From a virus (lineage: Duplodnaviria > Caudoviricetes), in IMG/VR virus record IMGVR_UViG_3300030376_007339, positions 1,813 to 65,812 of that record: DNA of 64,000 bases; one strand, 5' to 3'. The position numbers and the translations under genes were made by a program. Shown one piece after another: positions 16,601-60,080 of this stretch; the first letter of the stretch is position 1; the number at the start of each line of letters is the position of its first letter. A model generated the notes under the pieces. That model had not been told where the DNA came from. It saw only the letters and a list, made by a program, of their open reading frames with translations, and did not search any database.

Positions 16601-19600
16601 ACCTTCATAATCAGAAGTGTCAGTATAAGAATCAGAAGATAATGGTATGAGTTTTGATGCATCACTTACAGAACTTGTGAATAATTTAGCACCAACCTGT
16701 AAACCGGCAATAAAATTGTCTGATATATTTATCCGTGCGCCGTTTTTTGTTTTTTCCAATGTATTAGCAGTTATTCTCATGTATCCGTCAGTTTGCGGGT
16801 CATTAGCATAATACGCAAATTCATTATTTGAAAGATAAACTGCTGGAAGATAAGAATAACTTAAATGGTTTCTATAAGTTTTTTTAGATAATTGCGGCGT
16901 TTGGAAAATTTTTGGATGGCTCACATATATATCGTAAATTGTGTCTTCAAAATCGGGAGCAGAAGCACTTGATTCATCTTTAACAATTTGTGTTATGGTA
17001 GCGCTTCTAATTAAATTACCTTGGGTATCGATATACGTGTGAGCGGATTTCGCTTCTCGGTCATTAGGAACTATGTCATCAACTCTTTTACCTACAGGTG
17101 ATGGGTTCCATGTATGTGCAGTATATGTAGCGTCTAAGTGTAGTTTCATACTGTTATCAGGACCGGGAAATACCCCTTCACTGGTTTGCTCAAAAAATTG
17201 TTGAGGGAAAATTGGTATTTCTGTCATCGCTCTTGTGCTTGCGAATTGAGTTCCAAGTTGATAATCATGATTTACTGTATCCATGCTTTGGAATAAACGG
17301 TCATTGACGGTGCTTCCATCATCACACAAGTTTTCATTTTCAAAATCATTATCGTTGTATATGTTCGCAGTTACTTTAAAACTATCAGCAGAACTTTCAC
17401 TTACCAAATTAGTAGCATTACACCACTTATGAAAAGAAGAAACTGGTGTACCATTGGCTAATAAAAAAGTACCCGATGCTATTGCGTCAGTGTCACTAAA
17501 AGTGAATCCTGTGGCATTTTTACTTATGTAAGCAGCACTACTCCCATCGACTAAATATATTCTTCCAACCTTTGGAAAGCAATACGTACCCCACGAAGTA
17601 ATATCCTCTTGATAATTATTAAGTGGAGTTACACTCATTGTAAGCCCATTAGATGTAGTATCGACCCAGTGCGCTTTAACTGCACAATTCCTACGAGTTG
17701 AGCCGGGTAATCGCATTAAAGCACTTGGGTCGTAAGTTGGTTTTGTATTGACGGCACCTTGTCCGGGGCCTCCCAGTGTTACTGTTACAACAGGTGAGTT
17801 AGGTTCTATTTCTTTTACAACATGTGAATCAGGAGAGCCACTTCCTGTAATGTTAACATTTTCATTTATCAGTTCTTCATTTATTCCAGCAGCCGTGACA
17901 TGTGTTGTAAGTTGACCATCAGCACCTTTGTCTTGTCTTATGGAGCGTATTCTTGTACGACTCATAAGGTGCATTATCGATGCTACGTTAGGAATTTGAC
18001 CTTTTGTAATACCATCTCTTACCTTTGCTAATTGGTTTGTTCTACTTTTGTTACTGGGTTGTATATAAATACGACCAGCAGTTACTCCGTGTTCATAGTA
18101 AATATTGTCTATAATATCAAACATTTCATGTACAGGTGTGCCTTCATTTGTGCCGCCTTTATCGAATACACCAGTGCCAGTGTTTTCAACTTCGGGTGAT
18201 TTGATGAATTGTAAATTACTACTTTGACTCAAAAAGGTTACATTATCAATTGAAGCAGCGTCTATAGTTAATTTATGGTAAACTGATTTATGCACACCGT
18301 CGTTATGTGATGCATTAACCGCAGTTGGAGGGGTTGCGGGTTCAGCATTAGCATCATTAGGTGGAGTATAATTTACTGGACATCGACTAAAATCAAGAGT
18401 ATTATCAATGTCTGCTCCTCCGGTATTGTCACCAACCAAATTATGCGACTTTCCTATTTCAGGAGATAGGTTAGTAGCCGAACGAGAAAACTCAATAAAA
18501 CCACCCGGTGCAAATAACGTTGTATCTTTGCTCGCATCTGCTAAATCAGCCTCTATTACATCCATTACAGTAGTTGAGCCTGTCAATACAAAATTACCAC
18601 TTGGTACAGTTTTTTCAACTAATAGCACTGGTGTAGTTTTACTCATACTTGCACCTGTCAAGTCAATCGCATTGTAATGTATCTCAACATAAGGTGCTAA
18701 ATTATGTGTTGAACCTAATGTTGGGACTTTTAATAAAGCGATACGACTTTCAGTTTCGGGTCTTAAATGGTAATTTCTTGTATCATCATTTATGTCATCA
18801 AGTTCAGGAACAGGACCTTTTAACATAAATGGTTTAAAATCAAAATCAGTTCCACCAATAGCGATAATTTGTTCTTTACTTTCAGGTAAACCATTCCCAA
18901 CAACAAACGATGCTGGTGAAGAATTTACTGCGGCTGAAATACTTATTTGTGACGGTGTGTTATAAAAATCAGCAAGCGCATTTGGAGTAAAAAACCGGTC
19001 AACATTAGGTGCAGTATTGTCATAAGATAAAGAAACTATGTCAGCCGCCCCACCGATTTGTTGGTCAACAACTAAACTCATCGGGTTAGGGAACTTTCGC
19101 ATGTACTCATGACCGTCAATATGAGAATATGCATGTCTTCCGCTATGGCCTATTTGGAATAACTCATCTATACTTGAAGGCCAAACAACTGCAAAGGGAT
19201 TATTTGGGTGTGTTGTAGTGGTTGCCATTTGAGATGAATACATTAACCCATGTTGCTCTAATGTTGATTCATCAATTACCATTTGACCCGTTCTATCAAT
19301 AACTTGTGAGTTATAATGCGGCGGCTGATATGGTTTGCCAGTGCCGTTATCAATTAGTAAATCAGATGCTACAACAACAAAATAATCATCAACGTCAGCA
19401 GTTCTTGAATGTAACAATCCTCTTTTCCCGTTGGTTCCGTTAACAAAATCTAAGTGTATGCTGGATACTGTAAGCACACCAGTTGAAACATTTATTGATT
19501 CCAATCTCACTCTTTCAGGTGGGGATTGATTTGGTTTGTGTGTATTACGATTTATCGCACCGGGATTAATAAGTAAATTATATGGGGTATGCGGTATCGC

Positions 19601-20614: not shown

Positions 20615-22077
20615 ATCACATAATCAGTTGGTATAAATTGAATATCAAATCTATAAATTGGTTCGCCTGCAACTCGTGTAAAGGTTGCTTTTGTGACTAT
20701 ACCTTTTATTCCAGCATACGATTCAAGCCAAAAATGTAATTCATCACTAGCGGGTCTTGCGTTAATTACATCTTTACTGTTCGTGGTATGAAATCCACCT
20801 GTAGGCATGAAAAAGTTTACTGCACTGTATTTTTCTCCGCTATCTGCATTTAAAGACGAATTAAACGGGATTTGTATGCCCATAATATAATCGGCATACT
20901 TGCTATCAATCGGATTTAATACTTCTGTCACATTTGTTTCATTTACATAATAATTGTTTACAGTTTCGGCCAAACCCCCAAAAGGAGCGCTTAAGCCACC
21001 GTTGTTTGAATTGTTTAAGGTAGCCCACAATGACATTACTTTATCTCCAGCACTCATGCCTGCAAATGCACCAGTGGCGGGGCGACCACCCTTAAACACT
21101 GAAAAATAAGGTTTGAATGTAGTATCCCATATACCCCTATTGAAGTCAGGTCCTTTCCCATTTCCAGTAAGAGAATCTGTATCAGTTGTGGCTTGGGTGA
21201 TTACAACACCGGTTTGAGATTCACCACTTATTGTTGAATCAACTTGAGTAGCAGAAAAATTAGTTAAGTTATTCCCACCAAGGCTCGTAGCATTTAACAA
21301 ATCAGTTAGATTATTTGCCATTTGTTTAGCAGTTAAAATATTGGTTTTACTTGCTACTCTAAACGAACCGCTTGAGCCTCCCGCTACGGTAACTGTATCT
21401 CCAACGGCGTAGTTTTTACCCGGATGTATTACCTCTATCCCTGTTATGGCTCCACCTGAATTTGTATATGTTACGATGCAACCTGAACCGCTACCTGACG
21501 TTGATGTTGCAGTTTCAGCAGAAGAGGTATATCCACTTCCCCCTACTATAGTATCAACAGTTTCAACTCCATTTGCAGTTGCAACGGCAAAGAAATGCTT
21601 ACTTGAGCCACTATCATAACCGAATTTTGTGGAGGCTTTAGCGGCGTAAATGTTGTTTGTAGTTGAAAACGATGACCCACCTACTAATGCAAATCGAAAA
21701 GAAGACTGAGAAAAAGTATCAACTGTTTCACTTGCCCACAAACTTTCAAGATTAACTGCACTTGAAAAACTAATAGATTGTGAACTTGCTGGTTTTTGAG
21801 GGTTATTCACAAAATCAGTTCTTGAAAAATCAATAAGGGCTTGTGCTTGCGAACCTTGTCCTACCTTTGTTAAATCGTCATCAGTGAAAATCCCTCTAAG
21901 AAGAATTACTGCTTTAGTTAAATTCAAATCAATACTGTATCTTTCACTTCCAGTAAATATTATTGGAGTGGCGGAAACACCTCTATCAACATCCAAGGTA
22001 ATTTCTTCACACATGAGTTCAATCAGACCGCCATCGTTTCTAACTAAACGCACTGGAACTCCATTGGCATTACCCAT
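20611..22077 (-). CDS. Distal tail protein (Dit)-like with inserted domains
   Basis: 488 aa directly after the tape measure; beta-strand N- and C-terminal halves (ITLDVDR..SIDLN..ILLRGIF; KGIVTKATFTR..YRFDIQF) split by S/G/T-rich inserts. Confidence 0.55.
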   Translation of the reverse strand: MGNANGVPVRLVRNDGGLIELMCEEITLDVDRGVSATPIIFTGSERYSIDLNLTKAVILLRGIFTDDDLTKVGQGSQAQALIDFSRTDFVNNPQKPASSQSISFSSAVNLESLWASETVDTFSQSSFRFALVGGSSFSTTNNIYAAKASTKFGYDSGSSKHFFAVATANGVETVDTIVGGSGYTSSAETATSTSGSGSGCIVTYTNSGGAITGIEVIHPGKNYAVGDTVTVAGGSSGSFRVASKTNILTAKQMANNLTDLLNATSLGGNNLTNFSATQVDSTISGESQTGVVITQATTDTDSLTGNGKGPDFNRGIWDTTFKPYFSVFKGGRPATGAFAGMSAGDKVMSLWATLNNSNNGGLSAPFGGLAETVNNYYVNETNVTEVLNPIDSKYADYIMGIQIPFNSSLNADSGEKYSAVNFFMPTGGFHTTNSKDVINARPASDELHFWLESYAGIKGIVTKATFTRVAGEPIYRFDIQFIPTDYVI

Positions 22078-23240
22078 CAGTATCGCCCCTTCATGGTTGT
22101 GCCGCCCATATTACGAGCGAGTTCTTGTTGTATCATGTTACCGATTTCTCTTGCTAATGCTCTCTTATCAGTCCTATCGGTAATACCGCCAGCATTTACG
22201 GTTACATTAACCGTTCCACCCATACCAGCCCCACCGGGATTGTTTCTTTGTGTTAAAGGCACTACCGCCTCAGGTCCATCTTCACCAATTACGGCAAGTG
22301 TGGCTTTGTTTACTATACCACCTTTAGCCAATAACGGTATATTTCCTATCCCTGTAACCGATGAAAGCGAACCCAAAAATGGTAAATCATAATTCATTAC
22401 TGAGTTAATGGGATTAATTAAACTGCTATTAACCATTACTTTGAAAATATCAAGTGCGCCGCTAAAACCATTGGATATAGTTTGTGTAATATCCCCATCA
22501 ATTGAAAATAAATCTCCCAACCCCTCAGGAATTACATCATCCCATGACCAATCAGGTAAGAAATCTGACCATTGAAAATCCCAGTCTTCCCACGGCATAC
22601 TCCAATCAAAGACACCGCCTTCACCGAACCAGTAATCAGAAGTCAATGCTCCGCTAGGCTCCCAACTAAAAATTCCATCCAAATCAATATCCCAATCAAA
22701 GACACCATCTTCACCAAACCAATAATCCGTAGTCAAATAATCAGGAAGAGTAAAGTCACCCCAATCACTCCAAGGCATTTCCCATCCAGTAAATACCGAA
22801 CTACCAAAATAATAATCCCAAGTTAACCACTCAGGGACCGAAAAATCACCCCAAGATTCCCATGGCATTTCCCAACCAGTAAATACACCATCTTCGCCAA
22901 ACCAGTAAGCACTGGTTAAAACTGCGGGCGTTGTAAATGTAAAAATACCATCCCAATCAATGTCCCAATTGAATACACCACCCTCACCAAAATAATAGTC
23001 ATAAGTAAAAATAGCAGGTAAAGAAATATCAAATGCATTACTAACACTTGTTTTAAATTCTTCCCACTTTGTGCCTGCATTATCTAAAAATTCTCCTATG
23101 GGGCCACTCACGTATGTGTTCCAAGCATTTTGTATGCCTGTCCAAATCGCACTTACAGTTTGTCCTAATGCTGAAAATCCACCAGAAATTCCAGTAACGG
23201 CAGCAGACATGCTACCAAGAATTCCTAACATTGCAACCAT
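22077..23240 (-). CDS. Short tape measure protein with Trp/Asp-rich repeats
   Basis: Follows the chaperone pair; C-terminal LAKGGIV..TLAVIGEDGPEAVVPL motif typical of tape measure C-termini; central DY[WY]FGExGVFxW repeats. Confidence 0.65.
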   Translation of the reverse strand: MVAMLGILGSMSAAVTGISGGFSALGQTVSAIWTGIQNAWNTYVSGPIGEFLDNAGTKWEEFKTSVSNAFDISLPAIFTYDYYFGEGGVFNWDIDWDGIFTFTTPAVLTSAYWFGEDGVFTGWEMPWESWGDFSVPEWLTWDYYFGSSVFTGWEMPWSDWGDFTLPDYLTTDYWFGEDGVFDWDIDLDGIFSWEPSGALTSDYWFGEGGVFDWSMPWEDWDFQWSDFLPDWSWDDVIPEGLGDLFSIDGDITQTISNGFSGALDIFKVMVNSSLINPINSVMNYDLPFLGSLSSVTGIGNIPLLAKGGIVNKATLAVIGEDGPEAVVPLTQRNNPGGAGMGGTVNVTVNAGGITDRTDKRALAREIGNMIQQELARNMGGTTMKGRY

Positions 23241-31292: not shown

Positions 31293-32423
31293 TCACTTCA
31301 AGTCTCGGATAGAACCGTGACCTCCAAAGAAAGTTGTCCATACTTCACCCATGGTTCGGTACATTCCCTCTTGTCCGAGGCGGTTGATAGCGAATGGGTC
31401 GCCAGTTTCAATTCCACTCTCGAAGTATTGGGTTGGAATAGCGGTGCTAAAGTACAAGTAGTCTGTGTCAAGGTAGTAAATTCGGCTTAGGCCGTCTGCT
31501 GGTACGTCTTTGGATGGAATGATTGGGACACCGTTGTAGGTAGCCACAATGAAACCAGCCTCAACACCGGGTACACCCTTTACACCGTTGTAGGTTGGGG
31601 TGACTCTCTTTTCTTCCATGAACCTTTGTTGGCTTTGGAGAAGTTGTTGAAGTCTCATCAAAGTGTCGTATCCAGTAAGCATAACCTTTGGATTACCACC
31701 ACGGACCCAAATCTTTTGGAACAAATCGTCCAATTGGTCGAGTGATAGTGTTCTGTTGGTGCTTGCTGTGTCAGCATTTCCTTCTGCAAAGGACCAAGAG
31801 TTAGCACTTCGGTCAATTGAGTAAATGTCTTCATCTCCAGCATCATAGTGAGTACCTGAGGTCATAGCAGTTGAATCAGAAGTTGTTACCCTGTCAAGTG
31901 ATTCAAAATCGTTTGCAGCAGCAGTTGATACATCGGTCAACAACATTCTGTTGATGTGTTCTGCGTGGTGCTTACCCATTTCTTCTTTCAAAACGCTGCG
32001 AATGTCACCAAGACCGTCATCTTTGTCAGCAAGGAACATGGCTGTTTCGCTCATGTCAAATGTGTGGACAACAGTTTTTGGTTTTGCAGCAATGTGCTGG
32101 AAAATAGGTTTGGTAGTGTCAGGTAGTGTTGCGTTTTCTGCAACTCCTCCACCAACGGTGAAAGATGGTTTTTGAGTTACAACTCTCCAACCACTTCGCT
32201 CCCACGGTCTTTTCGGTAGAATGCTAAATGCATTGAATTCTTGGTTAAGTTGACTCCAAACCTTTCGGCCATAAATTGCTTGGTATGTACCGGCGGTTGA
32301 GGACAACATTGGGCTATCTGCTTTCAAAAGTTCTGAACCGCTGTAAGAATATCCCATAGCGTTTCCTGCGCCGTAGAAATAGCGTTCCATATCTTGTACT
32401 GTTCTAATATAATCTCTTGCCAT
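31293..32423 (-). CDS. Major capsid protein (HK97 fold)
   Basis: 376 aa after the protease-scaffold gene; AKPKTVVHTFDMSE, GNPKVMLTG, YNGVPIIPSKD, IYYLDTDYL are HK97-fold-like; putative propeptide ending SELLK|ADS. Confidence 0.9.
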   Translation of the reverse strand: MARDYIRTVQDMERYFYGAGNAMGYSYSGSELLKADSPMLSSTAGTYQAIYGRKVWSQLNQEFNAFSILPKRPWERSGWRVVTQKPSFTVGGGVAENATLPDTTKPIFQHIAAKPKTVVHTFDMSETAMFLADKDDGLGDIRSVLKEEMGKHHAEHINRMLLTDVSTAAANDFESLDRVTTSDSTAMTSGTHYDAGDEDIYSIDRSANSWSFAEGNADTASTNRTLSLDQLDDLFQKIWVRGGNPKVMLTGYDTLMRLQQLLQSQQRFMEEKRVTPTYNGVKGVPGVEAGFIVATYNGVPIIPSKDVPADGLSRIYYLDTDYLYFSTAIPTQYFESGIETGDPFAINRLGQEGMYRTMGEVWTTFFGGHGSIRDLK

Positions 32424-32455
32424 ATTTTTCATCTCCTATAATTTTTTCCTTCTCC

Positions 32456-41019: not shown

Positions 41020-42759
41020 TTATGCTCCTCTAAAGTTTCTCGCATTATTTATTGCATCACTTCGTGTTTGGCCTAATGTCCTTTCAGGCCCTCTTTGTTG
41101 TACGCTAGTAACCGGAGAACCTATGCCCGGTGATGTTCTTCTTTGCGGTGCTGCTGGCCCACGGTTTCTAATCCCCATTCCTTGACCACCGGGTTGTGGA
41201 GGTGGCATGATATTTTGCATCATATTTGGCGGCATCTGCGGTCCAGCAGGCGGCATCATTGGTGGCGCACCTCCTTGTGGCATCATTGGTGGCATACCAC
41301 CACCCATCATTGGTTGTGGCGGTGCTTGTTGTTGTGGTTGTGGTTCAGGTTTTTTGTATGTAAAGCGTATATCTCTATCAGCAACACCATCAACTAATTC
41401 AGGTACGAAACCTAACTGTGTCATACGTTGTGCGACGTTTAACTCCTGTTCATCACGTCTTAATCTTGTAATTTCATCCTCTTCTTCGTTTGGATATAAT
41501 GTGAGTTTCCAATCATGCACACCCATACTTTTTAGTAACCTTGGGAATAAAACTTCAGTGTAAACTTTTTGACCAAATTCAACGGCACGATTTGTAACTA
41601 AGATTTGAAGCCCTTCATTATTCAAACCACCCGACTTACCATTGTCAACCATGAATATACTTGAAACACCATAATAAGCGGCAATTCTGTTTCTTATCTC
41701 ATCACGAACTGGTATGTACTGCATTTCTTCAAGTGTATCCATAAATTTGACCCAATTTACACCACCTCTCCCTGTGCTAGATTCAATACCAACTTTTGGT
41801 ACGTAATGTGGGTCACGTTCCATTTTTTCATCAACTGATTTCCAAAACGATTTCATGGATTCAAGATTATCAGTTGTAACTGAAATAATACCTTTTGGCA
41901 TTCTTCTTTTCTGATATGCCGTGTACATGTAATTATCCATAGCAGTAAGTGTCATGGCTTGCCTCCACATGGTATTTACTGGAGAGCGCCCATAGAGTTT
42001 AGAAGGATTATACTTACTAATGTGTATTACTTCTCCCTCAACAAAGTATTGCGTTTTACCACTTCCAGCCATATTCACATAATGCACATCGTGAAGTTCC
42101 ATACCACATTCTTCACAATTACCAGCCTCAGTATGTGTTTTAACTTGGTCACGGTGGATTAAACATGTTTTGTACCTGCCACCTCTTACTCCTCTTTTAT
42201 CAGCGACAATACGCATAAAGATTGGGTCACCTCTAACCATTTCTTTCACCCTGTAAAAACTAACTTCTTTACTTTCAGGGTCAACGTAATACTCCTTTAT
42301 CATAATTAAAAATGCATCATCAACTACATTTAGGTCATTTTCTATTTCATGTAAAATGTGCAAGAATGATTGTTCCATCGAATTATCTTGTTTTAACAAC
42401 CACTTTGGGTATGTTAACTCATCAACATCGGGACTACGCACCTCTCCACCACATGATTTACATTGTTGAAGGTCATAAGTAAATTCTTCATCACACTGAG
42501 TACATTTATTGTGAAACTTTTTTTCCCAATAATGTCCTCTTCTGAACATTTCTTGTCTTAATTTTGAAAGCACTGTTCTAAGAATTAAACATTCTGTGCT
42601 TACGGCATAAAGAGCAGGAATAGTAATTCCTTGTGCCATTACGGGTTCTTGTACGCCACTTGTCCAAAGCGGCATAGTCGGCGTTGGAGATTGGCGGCGC
42701 TTGAACGGTTTTCCAAGTGCCGACAAAAATCGACTTATCCTGCTTTCATCATCAGCCAT
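41020..42759 (-). CDS. Portal protein with Zn-ribbon inserts and P/Q/M-rich tail
   Basis: Likely start 42759 (TAATG overlap); VIHISKYNPSKLYGRSP, MPKGII, IAAYYGVSSIF portal motifs; CxxC pairs. Confidence 0.9.
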   Translation of the reverse strand: MADDESRISRFLSALGKPFKRRQSPTPTMPLWTSGVQEPVMAQGITIPALYAVSTECLILRTVLSKLRQEMFRRGHYWEKKFHNKCTQCDEEFTYDLQQCKSCGGEVRSPDVDELTYPKWLLKQDNSMEQSFLHILHEIENDLNVVDDAFLIMIKEYYVDPESKEVSFYRVKEMVRGDPIFMRIVADKRGVRGGRYKTCLIHRDQVKTHTEAGNCEECGMELHDVHYVNMAGSGKTQYFVEGEVIHISKYNPSKLYGRSPVNTMWRQAMTLTAMDNYMYTAYQKRRMPKGIISVTTDNLESMKSFWKSVDEKMERDPHYVPKVGIESSTGRGGVNWVKFMDTLEEMQYIPVRDEIRNRIAAYYGVSSIFMVDNGKSGGLNNEGLQILVTNRAVEFGQKVYTEVLFPRLLKSMGVHDWKLTLYPNEEEDEITRLRRDEQELNVAQRMTQLGFVPELVDGVADRDIRFTYKKPEPQPQQQAPPQPMMGGGMPPMMPQGGAPPMMPPAGPQMPPNMMQNIMPPPQPGGQGMGIRNRGPAAPQRRTSPGIGSPVTSVQQRGPERTLGQTRSDAINNARNFRGA

Positions 42760-44066
42760 TACAAACTCTCCGCATATCCACCTATGGTATCCGCATCGAT
42801 ACCCCACTTATTTAAGAGATTATTGGCCTTTTTAGTATCATCTTTCCAATTATTATAGGTAACTAATTGATACAATTCTCTCTTTTTTAATTTGTCATCT
42901 TCATCAATAAATTTCAAAACCGCCTTTGCCTGCAACGATTTCATTTTGAGATGAGGTAAAATCCCTTTTAATAATTGCCGTAAATCTCCTTTTGAAGAAA
43001 ATATAAGTCGATGTTGACTCCGAACACTGTTTTTATGTATTCTTTGATTTAATACGAGTCTTCCGCATCCTAGTGCTTTATGTAAACTTTCACACTGAGT
43101 TTTACCTCTTTCACCTGTAGCAACGAATGTTGCTCTCGGTTCTCCTCTTTCAGAAATAAATATACTACCATCAGCATCAAGGAAACCAGCAGCGTAAGCC
43201 CACACATCTTTGATGATTATACCATGCGTTCCTAACTTGACATAATCACCCCTTGAGTTCGACTGGAAAATGTCTTTTTCTTCACCATACATTTTAATAG
43301 TTTTAGACAATTTTTTAGGAGTAATTGATTTATGTAAAACTTCAACTCCACGCCTTACTAACTCACGACTACTCAAAGGACCTGATTTTTCTAATTGTAT
43401 TGAAACATACTCCAACGCATTTTGGTCGTGCTTTGAAATAGTATCAATTTGATGTAAAGTATTACGCCACATTTTCTTTGAATCTTTTCTTAATTGCATG
43501 GCTACAGACCAATTCGATTGGTCATCCATATCCCAAGAATCTTTTTCATTTAACATGGACAATACAGAATATGCTTTCAAAAACTGTTGACAGGCTTTTT
43601 GTAAACTTGTACCTCTTGACTCACCAAATTTTCGCAAGGCTTTCAGACTTCTATCACTTAGTCCCATTTGCTTAATGATATGCTCAAGACCATCTGACCA
43701 ACTTAAATTGTTAATCGTTGCTTCAACTTCCATGGCTTTTATGGTTCTAACATCTTTTATGATACCGTCAATTTCTTCACGATTATCTTTATTAACACGT
43801 CGCATTTTTCTACACATACGTATTATTTCATCTGCATCTTTACCGTATGCGGTCTTAAGCCAACCATCACCATTTTCAGGAAATTTATATGACCTTATTT
43901 CATCAGAAGAATATATTCCTGATGATTTTTCAAGTGGTATGGATGAAAAGTCAAAATGAGGATGCTGCGACAGATTTTGTATAATCTTTACAGTATGTTC
44001 GTCGCCTTTTATGACTGGTGCATCATAGTCATCTCCTATGATGGCACTACCCCACATATTGACCAC
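42759..44066 (-). CDS. Free-standing LAGLIDADG-domain protein with large N-terminal region
   Basis: AYAAGFLDADGSIFI plus downstream beta-strands and L..ILPHL..K..QA; one LAGLIDADG motif; preceded by a wHTH-like segment. Confidence 0.8.
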   Translation of the reverse strand: MVNMWGSAIIGDDYDAPVIKGDEHTVKIIQNLSQHPHFDFSSIPLEKSSGIYSSDEIRSYKFPENGDGWLKTAYGKDADEIIRMCRKMRRVNKDNREEIDGIIKDVRTIKAMEVEATINNLSWSDGLEHIIKQMGLSDRSLKALRKFGESRGTSLQKACQQFLKAYSVLSMLNEKDSWDMDDQSNWSVAMQLRKDSKKMWRNTLHQIDTISKHDQNALEYVSIQLEKSGPLSSRELVRRGVEVLHKSITPKKLSKTIKMYGEEKDIFQSNSRGDYVKLGTHGIIIKDVWAYAAGFLDADGSIFISERGEPRATFVATGERGKTQCESLHKALGCGRLVLNQRIHKNSVRSQHRLIFSSKGDLRQLLKGILPHLKMKSLQAKAVLKFIDEDDKLKKRELYQLVTYNNWKDDTKKANNLLNKWGIDADTIGGYAESL

Positions 44067-44238: not shown

Positions 44239-45726
44239 CTATGGAACCATCCACGAATTTTTATTGTGATTTCTGTGCGGTTTGCCAGTAATCCATTCAT
44301 CAAAGCCGGGTAATATATCGTCAAGTAATATTACTGAGCCTTTGAATTCTTTTGTACCCCAATTAGCAAGTGCTAACGCCATGGCTAAGTCATCGTGAGT
44401 TCCAACAGACTCTAACTTACCATTCTTTTGCATACCGAATCGATTTAACTCCTGTTCTAATGTATTAGTGAACTTTCGGCTTCTTTCATCACCATATGGT
44501 GTTTGGATTTGTCCTTGTTCAAACGCCATAAGCAATGACATAAAGATACTTTCTTTTCTTTGTCTTGTTGTCATAAAAGTACGTATAGGAATATCATTTC
44601 TCATTTCTCTGAGTTCTGCTTCAAACATTCTTTGAAAGTTGTTACCCTCAAGTTCTATCAAATCAGGTTGAAATCTGTTATTTAACATTAAAATATGTTT
44701 TTTCTGTGCAGCCCCACCCATACCCTTTTCGTGTACAATCCCAACGATTTGTTTTACATTGTCATCGGGTGGTGTACGTAACACCATCATAGCGGTATAG
44801 TCAGCATTTTTATCTGAAGCAATTGCAGTATCCCACCCAATAAAGTGTTGACCGAATACACCAGCAGGATTACCTTCCTCATCGTATTCTGTTTCTGCTT
44901 TATCGAGTAAAACTAAATCATGATTACGGGCTTCTTCAAGTATCGTATGTGGAAACATACTTGCAACATCGTGAATAGGTTCACACAAATATTCACGGCT
45001 AAACTGAATCGCTGGCATAGATAACCTTCGTTGTTCAAGTGCTTCAAGATTCCAACGTTCCGGCCATAATGCTTTTCCATCATTATCTATAGCAGGATAA
45101 GTTTCTACATTGAATGTTTCTTTTTCTTCTAATTCTGCGTACAAGTCATTGTAAGAAAACGGTGTACCTACCATCATTAGTCGTGATGAGTGGTGAAGAA
45201 CAGGGAGAAGAACACCATAGAACCAATCTGCTGCTCTTTGTAATTCACCTCCAGTCGTACCCCATAGAATGTCATCACATACTACAACATCAGGGTGGAA
45301 ACCACGAGTAGCACCACCAACCGACTTTGCCATGATACGAGAGCCGTTAGTAAATTCAAAGTATGATTTTGCCCAAGGTCTTCCTTGGTCAGGTTTTAAA
45401 TTACGTAAAATATCAGCACTTTCTATATTATTACGAATAAATCTCATGTGTTCAAGTGTCTGTTCTAATGAGTGTGAAAAAATCATGATGTGAGTACCGG
45501 GTTGAAAAGCAGCCAACCAAAGAGCATATGACATAAACAGAGTTGATTTACCGTGGTCACGACTCGCTTTAACACAATAATAACGATGTTCACTCAAACC
45601 CTGTTCCCATGACTCATGATGATGACTGTAGTGAAAATCTAAAATTTCTGTGAAGAAAAATTTGAATGATTTTTTTGCCATCTCTCTATCCATGTCAAGG
45701 ATAAATGCTTTCATATCATCAGTCAC
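44239..45726 (-). CDS. terL: Terminase large subunit
   Basis: Walker A RDHGKST, Walker B VVVCDD, RNase-H-type IGWDTA and HDDLAMALALA. Confidence 0.95.
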   Translation of the reverse strand: MTDDMKAFILDMDREMAKKSFKFFFTEILDFHYSHHHESWEQGLSEHRYYCVKASRDHGKSTLFMSYALWLAAFQPGTHIMIFSHSLEQTLEHMRFIRNNIESADILRNLKPDQGRPWAKSYFEFTNGSRIMAKSVGGATRGFHPDVVVCDDILWGTTGGELQRAADWFYGVLLPVLHHSSRLMMVGTPFSYNDLYAELEEKETFNVETYPAIDNDGKALWPERWNLEALEQRRLSMPAIQFSREYLCEPIHDVASMFPHTILEEARNHDLVLLDKAETEYDEEGNPAGVFGQHFIGWDTAIASDKNADYTAMMVLRTPPDDNVKQIVGIVHEKGMGGAAQKKHILMLNNRFQPDLIELEGNNFQRMFEAELREMRNDIPIRTFMTTRQRKESIFMSLLMAFEQGQIQTPYGDERSRKFTNTLEQELNRFGMQKNGKLESVGTHDDLAMALALANWGTKEFKGSVILLDDILPGFDEWITGKPHRNHNKNSWMVP

Positions 45727-51016: not shown

Positions 51017-51307
51017 ATGTGGAGACTACCTCGTGTAGCGGGAGTTCCGCTTTCTATAGACACCATAAAAAGCCTCACAAGGGCAGCAAAAGATAAAACT
51101 ACAGGACAGTATGCTACACCACTACTAATGGCTGAAAGAAGTCGTATTTGTCAAGAATGTCCATACGGTGGTAAAAGATGTGATTTATGTGGATGTTTTG
51201 TAAAAACAAAAACTTCACTGTTAAATTCAAAATGTCCAATTAACAAATGGCCGTCAGCGAGTGATGCGAGCATATACTCCACTGAGCATAATAACACAAA
51301 GGAATAA
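51017..51307 (+). CDS. Small Cys-rich protein (DUF6171-like pattern)
   Basis: R..IC.ECP....CDLCGCFVKTKT.L....CPINKW; family name from memory. Confidence 0.65.
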   Translation: MWRLPRVAGVPLSIDTIKSLTRAAKDKTTGQYATPLLMAERSRICQECPYGGKRCDLCGCFVKTKTSLLNSKCPINKWPSASDASIYSTEHNNTKE

Positions 51308-51499
51308 ACCCATTACGTAGTATGAAAGACTACCAGTATTCATAGTACCACCTTTTAACAAGATAATCATCATCAACACAGTTACCATTGAAAGTAATTG
51401 TACCATTATCATATCAACAATTACACTTCTGTTTGGATTTAACACATCAAGTGTTGTTGATGCAAGTGTGTGCGGCATATATCTATTTTTATCGTACAT
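51254..51499 (-). CDS. Small two-TM membrane protein
   Basis: Two hydrophobic stretches (VIVDMIMVQLLSMVTVLMMIILL; YYVMGLFLCVIMLSGVYA). Confidence 0.7.
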   Translation of the reverse strand: MYDKNRYMPHTLASTTLDVLNPNRSVIVDMIMVQLLSMVTVLMMIILLKGGTMNTGSLSYYVMGLFLCVIMLSGVYARITR

Positions 51500-52131
51500 T
51501 ATTTCAACCCCATGAAACTTCTTCCTATGCTTCCTATCCCACTACCAACTTTTGCCATAGTGCCTTCATCTTGTAATGCACTACTCAATGCACCCCCTAA
51601 TGCACTTTGTTGTTGCATAGAAACAACTTGTTGAGCGTTCATTTGACTTTCATTTACTTTCTGTGTTGCAGATGATTGTAAATTACCAAACTGTGCTTTT
51701 ACGTTTTCAGCACTCATGGTTTGCAAATTTTGAGGTAATGAAGATACGTCCATTACCATAGTTCCATCATCATTCACATTGAATGTTGCACCTCTAAGTA
51801 TTTCAAGAACGTTAAGTGTAATCAAATTACTAAGCATTTCAACCAGTATGCCCATTTGTGGACTCGCAATATACCTTTCAATTGGTACACTGTTTTGCAT
51901 TAAGAAAAGTTGCATTTCTAATTCACTTGGCGGTTGATACTGCTGCTGCTGTTGTTGTTGTTGACCCCACATATTCTGTTGTTGACCAAACATATTCTGT
52001 TGTTGAGATGGGAAAGGATTCCCCCATCCAGTTGGGGCGGCACCGTTTGATACGCCCAAGTTTAGACTCCCATTTTGCATAGGAGTGTTGTTATTTACGC
52101 CTAAATTTAGCATCTCACTCACCCACCCCAA
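51499..52131 (-). CDS. Q/N-rich protein
   Basis: 210 aa; poly-Q tract and QQNM[FW]G repeats; amphipathic C-terminus. Confidence 0.7.
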   Translation of the reverse strand: MGWVSEMLNLGVNNNTPMQNGSLNLGVSNGAAPTGWGNPFPSQQQNMFGQQQNMWGQQQQQQQQYQPPSELEMQLFLMQNSVPIERYIASPQMGILVEMLSNLITLNVLEILRGATFNVNDDGTMVMDVSSLPQNLQTMSAENVKAQFGNLQSSATQKVNESQMNAQQVVSMQQQSALGGALSSALQDEGTMAKVGSGIGSIGRSFMGLK

Positions 52132-53074
52132 CCGTTTCTTCCAAATGAGGGTTTTGTTGAACTACTTGATTAACTTGTTGTTCCAAAATGTTTTGAAATG
52201 CTGGCGTTGGTTGATTCATTAAAGCAATTTCTTGTTTAAAAATACGTAAATCAAACACCACTGTTGTAATATCATTTTCTTTTGTCACTGGATTTGTATA
52301 ATAAATTATGTTAATACCGTTTGTCCTTCTTGCATCTTTTTCTAATTCAGCGAAAAAAGGTTCATATTTTTGTAGCATAGCAGGTGTAGGGTCTTTCTTT
52401 GCTACTGCGGCAACTGGCACTGTAACAATTGATACGCCCTTTTTCACTCTATCACGTAATCTTTTTGGATTCGCTTGGTTTATTTTTTCTTCTTCTGCTT
52501 CCCATTTGCAAAGTAAATGATAGAGATGCATATGTTCAGGACAATATGTACCTCTCATTTTTTGTCCACTGGAAACTTTTTCTCTTGCTATAAACGCCTC
52601 AGGTTGTCCCGTTACAGGATTTTGCCAATACATTTCCCACAAACTTCGCCCTGTATCTTCATCGGAAATTTTTGCATACAAATTATCATGTTGAATTAAA
52701 GCAGCACAATCACAACCATCAACAACACAAACATTGGTTTGTTTATTGTATCTATACTTTCTACCAAATATCCATCTTACAGGATTAACAATATTTGTTT
52801 TTGCTGGAGTTAGTAACTTGTAAGCCTGTTTTATATCCTTTCTTCTCGCTTTATTCGGGTCAGGGTGTCTTGAAGGATAAAAATTAACTTTCGGAACCTC
52901 AATATTCGCATTAGCGGATGCTTCTCTCATTGCTGCTTGAGCAGTAGTTTGTTCCATAAGTGCAGCATGTGATAATGAAGCATTACCCTGTTGCGCTAAT
53001 GCCAACAAATGTGCATTATTCATTTCTGTTAAACTTTGATTATTTTGTTGTTGAAACATATTCATCATTCTCAT
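52115..53074 (-). CDS. Q-rich protein with Cys/His Zn-binding motif
   Basis: CVVDGCDC...YCPEH..H..C. Confidence 0.7.
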   Translation of the reverse strand: MRMMNMFQQQNNQSLTEMNNAHLLALAQQGNASLSHAALMEQTTAQAAMREASANANIEVPKVNFYPSRHPDPNKARRKDIKQAYKLLTPAKTNIVNPVRWIFGRKYRYNKQTNVCVVDGCDCAALIQHDNLYAKISDEDTGRSLWEMYWQNPVTGQPEAFIAREKVSSGQKMRGTYCPEHMHLYHLLCKWEAEEEKINQANPKRLRDRVKKGVSIVTVPVAAVAKKDPTPAMLQKYEPFFAELEKDARRTNGINIIYYTNPVTKENDITTVVFDLRIFKQEIALMNQPTPAFQNILEQQVNQVVQQNPHLEETVGVGE

Positions 53075-53250
53075 TTACTCACATCCACATCTTTCTCTAT
53101 TTTTACTGTAAAATTTCTCATATTAGAAACAGACCATACAATTTTATCACCCGGTTTTAAATCCATCAATTTAGCAATCCAGTATGGTATTACTGTTCTT
53201 ACACAGTTACTATTCTTATTTACAGAAACTACCGTTGTTTTATCCGTCAT
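53071..53250 (-). CDS. AbrB/SpoVT-like swapped-hairpin DNA-binding protein
   Basis: Not in the track; RBS GGTGA; 59 aa MTDKTTVVSVNKNSNCVRTVIPYWIAKLMDLKPGDKIVW..., a typical archaeal AbrB pattern. Confidence 0.75.
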   Translation of the reverse strand: MTDKTTVVSVNKNSNCVRTVIPYWIAKLMDLKPGDKIVWSVSNMRNFTVKIEKDVDVSK

Positions 53251-53260
53251 TTTTTTTCAC

Positions 53261-53977
53261 CTATATCGTTAATAAATCAATCATTGTATTTTCCACATTC
53301 CATCCTATGCGAGTAGCCATAAAAGACCGTTTTGTAGGAATACCTGCTTTTTGTAATCTAATTAAATCATCTCTAAATGCATCAAAAACTTTGTGTTCTC
53401 CAATGCGACCTTGCTGCCATAGTGTAGCGGCCGTATCATCAAAGAACCTGTCAGCCTTATTCGCTACAAGCATGACTAATCTTGGTGCATACTTTTTCCC
53501 TTTCCACCGACTTTTAAGATTTCTATATCTGTAACTTTTATTTATCAAACAATCAACAAGATATTTGAAACCACCAATTTGTTGTATAGCATCATCTCCA
53601 CCATTGAATGCTCTATCATCAAAAATGAATACAACGGCTTCAACTTGACGAGCAACCATGTCATCAATCCATAAACTCCAAAATCTTTCATCGCCACCTA
53701 CATCAGAAGAAAATACCACTCTTCTATCACCTTTCCATGAAATACGTTTTCTTGTGGGTTTAGGTAACATATATCTTCCAAATATACGTATGTGATTAGT
53801 TCTTTCTTCATTACTAATCTCTTCCATTTCTCCCGGTGTTGTCATGTAACGGTCAAGTGTAGTTTTTCCAACCATTCTTGCACCATATATTCCCACCTTT
53901 CTTGGTCGCCAAGAATTGTAAATTGTTCTCCCCCATACTGCTGCACCAACTAAAGCAGAACCAGCAGGGTCAACCAT
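53261..53977 (-). CDS. Small GTPase, Arf/Sar-like (Ras superfamily)
   Basis: G1 GARMVGKTT, G2 T, G3 DVGG followed by x5-LW, beta4 AVVFIFD, G4 NKAD, G5-like ATRIGWNVE; hydrophobic N-terminal helix. Confidence 0.9.
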   Translation of the reverse strand: MVDPAGSALVGAAVWGRTIYNSWRPRKVGIYGARMVGKTTLDRYMTTPGEMEEISNEERTNHIRIFGRYMLPKPTRKRISWKGDRRVVFSSDVGGDERFWSLWIDDMVARQVEAVVFIFDDRAFNGGDDAIQQIGGFKYLVDCLINKSYRYRNLKSRWKGKKYAPRLVMLVANKADRFFDDTAATLWQQGRIGEHKVFDAFRDDLIRLQKAGIPTKRSFMATRIGWNVENTMIDLLTI

Positions 53978-54220
53978 CTAATCACCCGCCACCCAATTAG
54001 AAACTTTATTCCAAAACCATTCAACAGTATTTTCCCAAATAGAAACATCTGATGAAAGTTCATATGCACTTGTGATTAATATTGCACAACTGGTAAACAA
54101 TATAGTCCTCAACCAGCCCATACCTTTTTCATAATAGGTATCAAGTGTATTTTGAGTATGCATAGCCCTTAAAGTAGCCTCGGTAGAATCATCTGTAGGG
54201 GTTTTGAAAATACGCCCCAT
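53978..54220 (-). CDS. Single-TM protein with Trp-rich amphipathic C-terminal helix
   Basis: GWLRTILFTSCAILITSAY; IWENTVEWFWNKVSNWV. Confidence 0.7.
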   Translation of the reverse strand: MGRIFKTPTDDSTEATLRAMHTQNTLDTYYEKGMGWLRTILFTSCAILITSAYELSSDVSIWENTVEWFWNKVSNWVAGD

Positions 54221-54229
54221 AATCCCACC

Positions 54230-54793
54230 TCACTTCTTTTTCTTAGGGTCTTCCTTCTTATCCTCTTCTTCCTCTTTGATGCCAAGATTGATTGGTTGGT
54301 CAATCTGTGCATCATGCTGAGGAATACCGGGATTAAACATCGTTGTATCGTAAGAAGAAATCATAGATGGCGCACCACCCGGTACACCCCAACTAGGTGG
54401 CATTTTACCCGGATTCTGTTCCATCCAACGTATTTCCGCCTCAAGTTGAGCCTCTTGCATACGCATTTCCATGTCAGACCTTCGATTATCAAAGTTTGCT
54501 TGCATTTGTTTGTACCTATGTTGCCTTGTTTTTTCCATATTGGTTGCTCTAACTCTTTCTTGCATATTTTGTTCAAAAAACATCTTAAAAAAGTAATACG
54601 CTAATCCTTGTACGAAAAACGCCGCCATTGCATATGTAAACCCATTTAGCATGGGTGTATCACTAATCAACCACAACTTGGAATCAAAAATTCCTATTGC
54701 TAATCCTACAAGACCAGATTGGGCCAAAATTAACCCCATCAAGCGTATTTCCGCATCGTTCGCATCACCTTGTGTATTCATCTTCCTCACCAT
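54230..54793 (-). CDS. Two-TM protein with coiled coil and P-rich/K-rich tail
   Basis: LMGLILAQSGLVGLAIGIF and FTYAMAAFFVQGLAYYFF, then E/Q/R/M coiled coil; possible start ATG 54781 after GGTGAGG. Confidence 0.75.
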   Translation of the reverse strand: MVRKMNTQGDANDAEIRLMGLILAQSGLVGLAIGIFDSKLWLISDTPMLNGFTYAMAAFFVQGLAYYFFKMFFEQNMQERVRATNMEKTRQHRYKQMQANFDNRRSDMEMRMQEAQLEAEIRWMEQNPGKMPPSWGVPGGAPSMISSYDTTMFNPGIPQHDAQIDQPINLGIKEEEEDKKEDPKKKK

Positions 54794-54805
54794 AGGTCAA
54801 AATAT

Positions 54806-54930
54806 TAGTCAATTTAATCTTTTCGGAATATATGTCATTATTGTCATCATTCACTTCATACTAATGAAATATATATTATTATTATTATAATAGTCAATTT
54901 GATGACTAACGTTATGACATTTATGACATC
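54806..54930. promoter_or_regulatory. Symmetric AT-rich intergenic element with TGAC[AT] repeats
   Basis: TAGTCAATTT at 54806 and 54891; TGTCAT x2 (54833, 54842) versus ATGACA x2 (54914, 54923) flanking an (ATT)n tract. Confidence 0.55.
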
Positions 54931-58871: not shown

Positions 58872-59111
58872 ATGGAAGCCAGCGTATATTCAATTTCAAT
58901 TGTATTAGGTTTTGTTATTGCACGTCTTGGTGTTGAATACACCAATATACGTTTACGAGTCGGTCCTATTAGGATACATCATTGGATGTGGGCTACCGCT
59001 ATTATGCTTGCAGTATATTTTTCTATAGAATTACCTGACTGGTTATGGGGTATTTTACTTGGAATTGCTTTGGAAGGTTTGAGGCGGAAAGAGTGGGGAT
59101 GGCGAGCATAG
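58872..59111 (+). CDS. Small membrane protein with HHW motif
   Basis: Likely start 58872; three hydrophobic segments; RIHHWMW. Confidence 0.6.
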   Translation: MEASVYSISIVLGFVIARLGVEYTNIRLRVGPIRIHHWMWATAIMLAVYFSIELPDWLWGILLGIALEGLRRKEWGWRA

Positions 59112-59928
59112 GCTCTTGCTTGATTTTTCTTACAATCTTCAAAGCGTCATCTAATCTATTTTCATCAATGCCACTTTCAAAGCCCCAAGCATTAAGATGA
59201 CGGACTAATGTTTCTGTGCTAAGATTAGAACCACTACCTTCAACCATTGGACAACCACCTAGTCCGCCAATACTTGCATCAAATTGTTTAATTCCAGCAA
59301 GCAAACCTGCTCTTACTAAAGTTAAAGGTCGGGACTCATCTCCTTTATGATGAAGATGGAGAGCAGGGATTAAACTTTCTTTAAGTGCTAATCTTGCCAT
59401 TTGTTTTATTTGATTTTTGTCTCCAATACCTACAGTATCAGAAAATACAACAGTATTACCAAATAACTTAGCATCTATTATACAACTTTTCAAAATATCT
59501 TCATCAAACAGACCACTATAGGGTGAGCCAAAAGCCATGGAAATGTAAACTCGCACTTTTTCTTTTGGATATTTATTCAAAAATGAATGATAATGAAAAA
59601 CTAATTCGCTACGTGTCATCCGAAAACTTCTCATGTTAAAGGTTTCGCAAGGAGAAAGCACGATGTTGACTTTTTCAACACCAGTTGCCATGGCTCTATC
59701 AAAACCACGCTTGTTCATTACAAGACCTGCACCTTTTCCGGTAAACACTTTTTCAGCATCAGCCATTTGAGGTATAATTTTTGGATGAGCAAATGAAACT
59801 TCTTCGATGTTTTCTACACCAGCATCGTATAGGGCTTTGATAAGAAGACGCTTGTTTTTTGTATCAACTATATGGGGTAAATATTGCAAACCGTCACGAG
59901 GGCCAACCTCGTAAACGGTGACCTTCAC
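59023..59928 (-). CDS. hmgL: Hydroxymethylglutaryl-CoA lyase-like enzyme (DRE-TIM), auxiliary metabolic gene
   Basis: GTG start 59928 after AGGAGG; EVGPRDGLQ, SDTVG, LHLH, GGLGGCP...SNLSTE signature motifs intact. Confidence 0.88.
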   Translation of the reverse strand: MKVTVYEVGPRDGLQYLPHIVDTKNKRLLIKALYDAGVENIEEVSFAHPKIIPQMADAEKVFTGKGAGLVMNKRGFDRAMATGVEKVNIVLSPCETFNMRSFRMTRSELVFHYHSFLNKYPKEKVRVYISMAFGSPYSGLFDEDILKSCIIDAKLFGNTVVFSDTVGIGDKNQIKQMARLALKESLIPALHLHHKGDESRPLTLVRAGLLAGIKQFDASIGGLGGCPMVEGSGSNLSTETLVRHLNAWGFESGIDENRLDDALKIVRKIKQEPMLAIPTLSASNLPKQFQVKYPITSQVIL

Positions 59929-60080
59929 TGAGGCCCCCTCCTTAGCCCCTGCCAACACATTTCATCTAATTCTTCAGGACTTTCAAAAAACATTACATCT
60001 TTTCCAATGTTATCAAATGCACTAAATGTGGCTGCTACAAGTATAATCAAAAAAAGAAGTAACCAATAAAAAAGCAGCAT
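59925..60080 (-). CDS. 51-aa single-TM protein
   Basis: Not in the track; MLLFYWLLLFLIILVAATFSAF...; its stop overlaps the HMGL GTG. Confidence 0.55.
   Translation of the reverse strand: MLLFYWLLLFLIILVAATFSAFDNIGKDVMFFESPEELDEMCWQGLRRGPQ

Follow-up and report, generated by a model that had tools for sequence, protein, structure and literature searches.

A seven-gene operon at the head of the structural block

The window analysed here is a stretch of 64,000 nucleotides (positions 1,813 to 65,812 of IMG/VR record IMGVR_UViG_3300030376_007339) and represents most of a 65.8-kb record that is estimated to be ~61% complete. The source is a magrovirus-like tailed virus whose host is assigned to the Marine Group II / Poseidoniales archaea. 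Marine Group II are abundant ocean archaea. The window contains a cassette of seven minus-strand genes that includes a small GTPase, and we consider this cassette a candidate, still unproven, for a system that acts on the host membrane or lets virions leave through it. The cassette had been singled out in an earlier note made from the DNA letters alone, and all of its open reading frames (ORFs) were found at the coordinates claimed there. The genes follow one another in the order listed below: a protein with two transmembrane (TM) helices and a coiled-coil-like segment, a single-TM Trp-rich protein, the GTPase, an AbrB/MazE-like protein, a Gln-rich protein with a CCCH site, a Gln/Asn (Q/N)-rich protein and a second two-TM protein.

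51254-54793, minus: the seven-gene cassette (ORFs at the coordinates of the earlier note)
54230-54793, minus: gene 1, membrane protein of 187 amino acids (aa) (ORF and hydropathy)
53978-54220, minus: gene 2, 80-aa single-pass membrane protein (ORF and hydropathy)
53261-53977, minus: gene 3, divergent Arf/Sar-like small GTPase of 238 aa (ORF and motifs)
53071-53250, minus: gene 4, 59-aa AbrB/MazE-like (SpoVT-AbrB) protein (PF04014)
52115-53074, minus: gene 5, 319-aa orphan with Gln-rich ends (ORF and alignment)
51499-52131, minus: gene 6, Q/N-rich protein, 210 aa as an ORF and ~205 aa from the likelier ATG at 52113
51254-51499, minus: gene 7, 81 aa, with two strong TM helices and a conserved VY.RITR end (hydropathy)

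The junctions between the genes consist of an abutting TAG ATG, an ATGA overlap, a TAATG overlap or spacers of 1-10 nucleotides (nt), in keeping with the translational coupling that had been proposed, and ribosome-binding sites of the GGTG type are found at the junctions. All seven genes are under purifying selection, with ratios of nonsynonymous to synonymous substitution (dN/dS) of 0.06-0.35 and dS saturated.

The following features flank the cassette.

54794-54929, minus: AT-rich intergenic gap of 136 nt, 5' of gene 1 (sequence read)
54806-54815 and 54891-54900, minus: two exact copies of AAATTGACTA in this gap, 85 nt apart (pattern search)
51017-51307, plus: small, Cys-rich, convergent DUF6171 gene (DUF6171 E 4e-5; phrog_13558 E 9e-13)
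44239-45726, minus: large terminase
31293-32432, minus: HK97-type capsid protein

The 136-nt gap is likely the promoter region of the cassette. Three exact copies of AAATTGACTA occur in the 64 kb, two of them inside the gap, and the pair may be a promoter or regulator site; with one mismatch allowed, the motif is not enriched across the window (13 found, 10.9 expected). Scans for sigma-70 promoters and terminators stayed at chance level, and both models do not apply to archaea. At the other end, the DUF6171 gene overlaps the 3' end of the last cassette gene by 54 nt. Because an AT-rich gap lies upstream and a convergent gene downstream, the coordinates given in the earlier note delimit a plausible operon. 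The cassette is located just upstream of the structural block and on the same strand as its genes, which encode the large terminase, portal, prohead protease, HK97-type capsid protein, tail tube and tape measure.

Sequence features of the GTPase

The motifs of the GTPase are all encoded on the minus strand, at the following positions.

53909-53968, minus: N-terminal hydrophobic helix, residues 4-23 (structure model)
53858-53884, minus: G1 P-loop, GARMVGKTT (translated)
53756-53839, minus: extended switch I, residues 47-74 (alignments and secondary structure of the model)
53669-53704, minus: G3 / switch II, DVGGDERFWSLW, with Asp at the catalytic position (translated)
53480-53539, minus: basic, aromatic-rich insert KSYRYRNLKSRWKGKKYAPR between helix 3 and strand 5 (alignment)
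53450-53461, minus: G4, NKAD (translated)
53291-53320, minus: G5 region, MATRIGWNVE (translated)

The window protein satisfies the small-GTPase motif order G1 GxxxxGK[ST], G3 DxxG and G4 NKxD, and the G-boxes on which the earlier identification was based (GARMVGKTT, DVGG, NKAD and MATRIGWNVE) are each translated at the cited place. G32, G37, K38, D92, G95, N173 and K174 are invariant in an alignment of the diverse GTPase family. G4 reads NKAD in 140 homologues and NKMD, NKYD or NKFD in seven, while distant relatives carry SAK, SAR or SAL at the G5 position. There are two candidates for the G2 Thr in the window GTPase, T60 and T75.

The protein is ~58 residues longer than Arf: switch I is extended, the basic insert is added ahead of strand 5 and the region of helix 4 is longer. 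Switch I is ~16 aa longer than that of Arf and carries the family-specific motifs TPGEME, RTxH and LPxPT. The insert KSYRYRNLKSRWKGKKYAPR is without counterpart in Arf, and the structure model places an extra helix there (residues 154-162); this segment is a candidate for a second membrane- or partner-binding surface.

The replacement of the catalytic Gln by Asp, reported in the earlier note, is correct for the window protein but does not hold as a family trait, since most relatives have Gln and Asp is confined to a sub-lineage. Among close clusters (n=126) the position is Q in 95, E in 29 and D in 2, and among distant clusters it is Q in 15, H in 6, E in 5, D in 3 and A in 1. The His of some distant relatives is the residue found in Sar1.

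The segment preceding strand 1 comprises 23-27 aa in all viral clades and carries few charges, with a mean Eisenberg hydrophobicity of +0.09 to +0.39. The hydrophobic character of the N-terminal helix is thus conserved across every viral clade. HMMER aligns it with the N-terminal helices of GerdArfR1 and Arl8. Residues 4-23 thus align to the Arf helix, but they are hydrophobic rather than amphipathic; the Asgard ArfR helices, in contrast, are charged and amphipathic, with 16-20 residues and mean Eisenberg values of -0.16 to -0.28. Its composition suggests a permanent anchor in the membrane more than an amphipathic helix that switches.

Structural and sequence neighbours of the GTPase

By sequence, the viral GTPase family stands alone. 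Single-sequence searches of Pfam, PHROGs, NCBIfam and PADLOC gave no match or sub-threshold matches only, the sole Pfam match of the window GTPase up to E 1 being Roc (E 0.06). A phmmer search against 1.8 billion representatives returned 76 matches, all of them members or fragments of the viral family. In a language-model atlas, the nearest named clusters after the family's own viral ones are bacterial clusters in which 17-67% of the members have a Pfam Arf match.

To place the protein by structure, we used an AlphaFold2 model built on a diverse 68-sequence alignment. The model is confident, with a predicted local distance difference test score (pLDDT) of 89.3 and a predicted template modelling score (pTM) of 0.86, and has the G-domain fold of small GTPases. 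An earlier AlphaFold run on 22 near-identical sequences reached a pLDDT of 54.9 and was set aside. With Foldseek by itself, the families of small GTPases are not told apart, all of them matching about equally. A Foldseek-independent scan of 48,161 chains scored Arf6 at 17.6, Sar1 at 17.0, SRbeta at 16.6, Asgard Rag at 16.0 and G-alpha at 15.3; Rab (at most 14.8), Rho and Rheb (~13.7-13.9) and N-Ras (13.1) were lower. Ranks 1-22 of the structural neighbours (pdb_via) all belong to the Arf family.

Profile searches point the same way. The best match in the PDB to a profile of 15 diverse members is Asgard GerdArfR1-GDP (8OUN; E 2.9e-6), in an alignment that spans the N-terminal helix through switch II, followed by Arl8A/B (E 7e-5 to 4e-4), Rab33 (0.002) and K-Ras (0.009). 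The gapless alignment to the Arf pattern that had been noted earlier is also recovered by HMMER, which matches the family switch II DiGGQerywslW to Arl8 DIGGQPRFRSMW with zero gaps. The spacing of the Arf signature in switch II, DxGGQ with W at +11, is therefore kept, with Asp for Gln in the window protein. We conclude that the viral protein is a real small GTPase and that, in structure and profile comparisons, it lies closest to Arf, Arl, Sar1, SRbeta and Asgard ArfR.

A place within the Arf family itself is a different matter, and several results fall short of supporting it. Pfam Arf (PF00025) was detected in 6 of 15 diverse family members, with a best E of 0.0048 that lies below the gathering cut-off. 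The phylogeny that the earlier note had proposed was built by maximum likelihood (ML) under LG+C20 from 15 viral sequences and from 9 Arf-like, 16 Ras/Rab-like and 4 Rag-like GTPases of one Asgard genome, sorted by Pfam bit scores, with no eukaryotic reference, ArvA or outgroup in the tree. The viral GTPases are monophyletic (support 100/100) on a stem of 2.46 substitutions per site, but the clade joins between the Ras and the Arf+Rag groups with a support of only 77/38. In hhalign comparisons, the viral profile scores 81.0 against the Arf-like and 81.6 against the Ras-like Asgard sets, which score 191 against each other; the viral family is therefore farther from Arf and Ras than these two are from each other. 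Taken together, the label Arf/Sar1-like describes the nearest neighbours well, and the modelled fold looks to be of the Arf/Sar type, but the protein is not demonstrably a member of the Arf family. For this reason, the membrane mechanics of Arf proteins are not simply transferable to it.

Conservation of the cassette across viruses

Homologues of the GTPase form 458 clusters at 90% identity from marine metagenomes, nearly all exactly 238 aa long. Relatives are encoded on 284 IMG/VR contigs, of which the best 80 were used for synteny counts. In 80/80 of these loci, genes 1, 2, 3, 5, 6 and 7 and a downstream helix-turn-helix (HTH) gene are present with order and strand kept. The six-gene core remains intact at 33-39% GTPase identity in four distant loci (L089, L090, L091 and L136). 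We define the conserved core as six genes because the AbrB-like gene is confined to the near clade. At 30% identity, in the deepest branch read (L134), small TM proteins are still found 5' of the GTPase, and the zinc-site protein was not detected; wherever the upstream context is readable, down to this identity, small TM proteins precede the GTPase. Synteny across magrovirus contigs, which the earlier note had proposed as a check, is thus borne out: magrovirus-like viruses keep the cassette as a unit, and it is not a recent host gene.

One of the core loci (L090, also G001:C2) is carried by a 106-kb contig of a Poseidoniales single-cell genome. Because the capsid protein of this contig is 67% identical to that of the window, it supports both the magrovirus assignment and the host. 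The GTPases of the two viruses are 38% identical and their zinc-site proteins 34%. From this pair, the cassette diverges much faster than the capsid across magrovirus groups.

A 31%-identical GTPase relative (P0161) is encoded on an 11-kb contig together with Tad2-like and Acb5 anti-defence genes and an integrase, with no small TM genes immediately upstream. Given this context, the family may extend outside the magroviruses, perhaps to temperate viruses that infect bacteria.

A tblastn search of 50,697 GenBank phage records gave no match to the GTPase, which agrees with the earlier statement that small-GTPase cassettes are not standard in head-tailed viruses. The Joint Genome Institute (JGI) pipeline labels some homologues 'GTPase SAR1 family protein' and others hypothetical. 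No description of the cassette was found in the literature searched, and no GTPase is mentioned in the main text of the magrovirus papers searched and one set of supplements.

Proteins encoded beside the GTPase

The features that the earlier note ascribed to the neighbouring proteins (a two-TM coiled-coil protein, a single-TM Trp-rich protein, Q-rich and Q/N-rich proteins and a further two-TM protein) agree with their hydropathy and composition. Gene 1 encodes two N-terminal hydrophobic helices, one clear and one aromatic-rich by hydropathy, followed by a basic coiled-coil-like segment and a charged tail. Its identity across related loci is 42-78% (dN/dS 0.06-0.10), and the TM region and an RR...ELRWME pattern are still present in distant relatives. 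Searches of family libraries with this protein gave no match.

In the gene 2 protein, a conserved GRIFKTP...TLRA motif at the N-terminus and a moderately hydrophobic stretch precede a C-terminal segment with five Trp. The TAG stop of gene 2 and the ATG of the GTPase are adjacent codons in one frame (53975-53980). In the distant locus L084 and in the four distant core loci, the gene before the GTPase also encodes a protein of this size and build. One related contig has a Gln codon in place of the stop, so that the single-TM protein and the GTPase form a natural 303-aa in-frame fusion (P0005; ...WVSGD-Q-MVEPAG...); a second fusion of this kind, of poorer quality, occurs in another clade (P0165). 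If P0005 is functional, it would place the C-terminus of the single-TM protein on the same side of the membrane as the GTPase. Longer fusions that include the GTPase were looked for and not found.

The AbrB-like regulator of the earlier note is AbrB/MazE-like at the level of the family, and it is not a core gene. All 11 aligned homologues of gene 4 match PF04014 (best E 4e-6), with the window's own protein below the cut-off (E 0.087), and a PDB search with the gene 4 profile gave no match to AbrB or MazE. The gene was detected in 51/80 loci and is absent from the four distant core loci; it is an accessory of the near clade.

Gene 5 has an invariant C116-x4-C121 ... C178-x2-H181 arrangement (CCCH), which is a putative zinc site. 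The protein is present in 80/80 loci at 57-74% identity, and at 30-36% beside the GTPase in the four distant core loci. No match to it was found in Pfam, PHROGs, NCBIfam, PDB profiles or the Atlas. The gene 6 protein contains 24% Q+N and has a conserved C-terminal half; matches to it in distant loci are weak but significant, and a PDB search gave no match. The build of gene 7 is conserved in L089, L090 and L136. By analogy, this last protein is holin-like in size and topology only.

GTPases in host genomes

We also searched cellular genomes for relatives of the viral GTPase. Among 185,579 species genomes there are five matching loci: three share their contig with the viral cassette, and the contigs of the other two are of viral size. 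The bins concerned are assorted metagenome-assembled genomes (MAGs) or a Poseidoniales single-cell genome. Across 201 Poseidoniales genomes, the viral GTPase profile matches only the 106-kb viral contig described above. Pfam Arf was found in 0/101 Poseidoniales genomes and in 12/14 control genomes, including Haloferax volcanii. Pfam Ras gave marginal matches only in Poseidoniales genomes (at most 25 bits, inside proteins of 370-680 aa), and most controls were positive. In these genomes the host order therefore shows no small GTPase of the Arf or Ras type, and it follows that the virus must itself supply any partners or regulators.

Proposed function and alternatives

As a tentative first choice, we propose that the module is a self-contained membrane GTPase system whose most likely job is a nucleotide-timed, late change of the membrane that releases virions. 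In this scheme, the long hydrophobic helix at its N-terminus would tether the GTPase to the cytoplasmic membrane of the host. Beside it would lie the three small membrane proteins, with conserved soluble parts that are predicted to be cytoplasmic. A link to the membrane is suggested by the hydrophobic helix found in every viral clade, by the small TM proteins encoded ahead of the GTPase and by the in-frame fusion P0005. The zinc-site protein and the Q/N-rich protein would be the likeliest regulator and effector or scaffold. Late in infection, the nucleotide-timed membrane change would then free virions from a host that has no murein.

A late role in virion release is favoured because the operon lies at the head of the packaging and structural block. 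Virion release is ranked first because of this late-block position together with three further considerations. No family of the PHROG lysis category and no hydrolase was found among the cassette and scanned window ORFs; the egress machinery of tailed archaeal viruses has been stated to be completely uncharacterised (PMC10791045); and the vesiculation linked to ArvA provides a precedent.

Several points weigh against this reading, in addition to the uncertain Arf membership discussed above. The earlier note saw no holin-endolysin pair, and this holds for the scanned window ORFs; the record, however, is ~61% complete, so a lysis module may lie in the missing part. The placement beside late genes is an analogy only to phage lysis cassettes, and the search of sequencing runs returned DNA runs of marine metagenomes only, with no RNA run containing the sequence. 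None of the partners matches a known guanine nucleotide exchange factor (GEF), GTPase-activating protein (GAP), coat, holin or lysin in family, PDB and PADLOC searches. The membrane topology and anchoring of the cassette proteins are read from hydropathy alone. The catalytic residue of the GTPase varies (Q, E, D, H or A), and a strictly conserved hydrolysis timer therefore fits the family poorly. Caution is warranted because of this variation, the lack of a recognisable GEF, GAP or lysin domain and the incomplete record.

A broader version of the proposal goes further and is, in our view, doubtful. It holds that magroviruses own a complete Arf/Sar-like membrane-remodelling machine, used in hosts without small GTPases of their own, in which an anchored GTPase is served by membrane proteins that act as receptors or exchange factors, by a GAP-like regulator with a zinc site and by Q-rich scaffolds. 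Such a machine would answer the long-standing question of how tailed archaeal viruses are released, and would be a prokaryotic-virus counterpart, possibly a relative, of the coat-recruitment logic of eukaryotic Arf/Sar1.

It is also conceivable, if unlikely, that the module builds or tethers an intracellular platform, such as a membrane site for replication, capsid assembly or packaging, or vesicles or compartments, to which the GTPase recruits a Q-rich scaffold. The structural evidence for a membrane-associated GTPase applies equally to such a platform. The cassette also adjoins the packaging and head genes and encodes two conserved Gln/Asn-rich proteins, a kind that often forms assemblies, and in haloarchaea the ArvA GTPase with its Zn-ribbon partner drives vesicle formation (PMC10927574). 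However, neither partner in the viral operon matches ArvB or ArvC (DUF2073, DUF2072), the operon is without a replication or assembly protein, and tailed archaeal viruses have no known compartment.

Less likely again is a device for host takeover or exclusion, which would alter the envelope, transport or division of the host or block superinfection. Small membrane proteins are typical of such genes, and the cassette has a likely promoter gap of its own and, in some lineages, an AbrB-like regulator. In several contigs of ~100 kb it lies within ~10 kb of the genome end, a region that often holds early genes. Genes for exclusion are nevertheless usually variable, whereas the cassette is core and strongly conserved; it is also contiguous and co-oriented with the structural block, and the PADLOC defence search gave no match.

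We consider it improbable that the GTPase acts in solution, regulating for instance translation, packaging or transcription, and is linked to its membrane neighbours by gene order only. A gene-order link of this kind would have to account for the TM genes that flank the GTPase gene across ~30-85% identity and for junctions with coupled start and stop codons, and a soluble protein for the hydrophobic N-terminal helix present in all clades.

That the genes are a recently captured host gene or a chance set of ORFs without conserved function is hardly credible: the automatic labels of the homologues, which say only 'GTPase SAR1 family protein' or hypothetical, would allow it, but it is already contradicted by synteny (80/80 loci, 458 homologue clusters, 284 viral contigs), by purifying selection and by the genome searches, in which 201 Poseidoniales genomes had no host homologue and the five loci in 185,579 species genomes lie on cassette-bearing or viral-size contigs.

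Returning to virion release, the cassette offers a concrete and clonable candidate for how tailed archaeal viruses leave their wall-less hosts. It encodes the only small GTPase found in a prokaryote virus, among 50,697 GenBank phage records and the best 50 BFVD matches listed. A module that brings its own regulators would also be a compact system for studying a minimal GTPase-membrane machine. The deep position of the family next to the Arf/Sar/SRbeta group, weakly supported as it is, holds some interest for the history of GTPase switches.

Other features of the window

Three further genes outside the cassette are recorded here, all on the minus strand. A single ORF of 6,329 aa (1625-20614) takes up 30% of the window and lies in the tail region, downstream of a tape-measure-like gene (22077-23240). 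A 435-aa protein encoded between the portal and large terminase genes (42759-44066) contains an HNH-endonuclease-like segment (phrog_5046, E 4e-8). The gene at 59023-59958 encodes an HMGL-like (DRE-TIM aldolase/lyase) domain (PF00682, E 4e-20) and, going by this domain, is a possible auxiliary metabolic gene.

Comparison with known systems

The closest known proteins are those of the Arf family, including Arf1, Arf6, Arl1, Arl3, Arl8 and Sar1 and the Asgard proteins GerdArfR1 (8OUN/8OUM) and HodArfR1 (8OUK). The viral GTPase differs from them in its longer, hydrophobic N-terminal helix and in having no aromatic residue before the G3 Asp. The viral family also forms a separate long branch, equidistant by profile from the Asgard Arf-like and Ras-like sets.

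Among prokaryotic systems, ArvA-ArvB-ArvC of Haloferax volcanii is a GTPase operon with a zinc-binding protein that has been linked to membrane vesiculation (PMC10927574). Both systems combine a prokaryotic small GTPase that has an N-terminal helix with a zinc-site gene in the same operon, ArvA being compared by description only. Unlike ArvB and ArvC, the viral partners have no match to DUF2073 or DUF2072 (Pfam, E <= 1), and the viral zinc-site protein is unrelated by sequence; the viral operon also adds three TM proteins and a Q/N-rich protein.

Giant viruses of eukaryotes carry Rab, Ras and Ran genes that look like captured eukaryotic genes. Such viruses account for all of the best 50 viral structural matches listed in BFVD, which are Rab, Ras or Ran proteins (e.g., the mimivirus Rab, 5XC5). 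Both kinds of GTPase are virus-encoded, but the magrovirus protein belongs to a tailed virus of a prokaryote, has its own conserved partners and is without a close cellular homologue.

Finally, the cassette resembles phage lysis cassettes, such as the holin, endolysin and spanin genes of lambda, in its compactness, in the small membrane proteins that it encodes and in its position just upstream of the terminase and head genes, and in size and topology gene 7 corresponds to a class II holin. It differs from them in having no endolysin, spanin or PHROG lysis family and in serving a host without murein, and nothing in phage lysis cassettes corresponds to its GTPase and its two Q-rich orphans.

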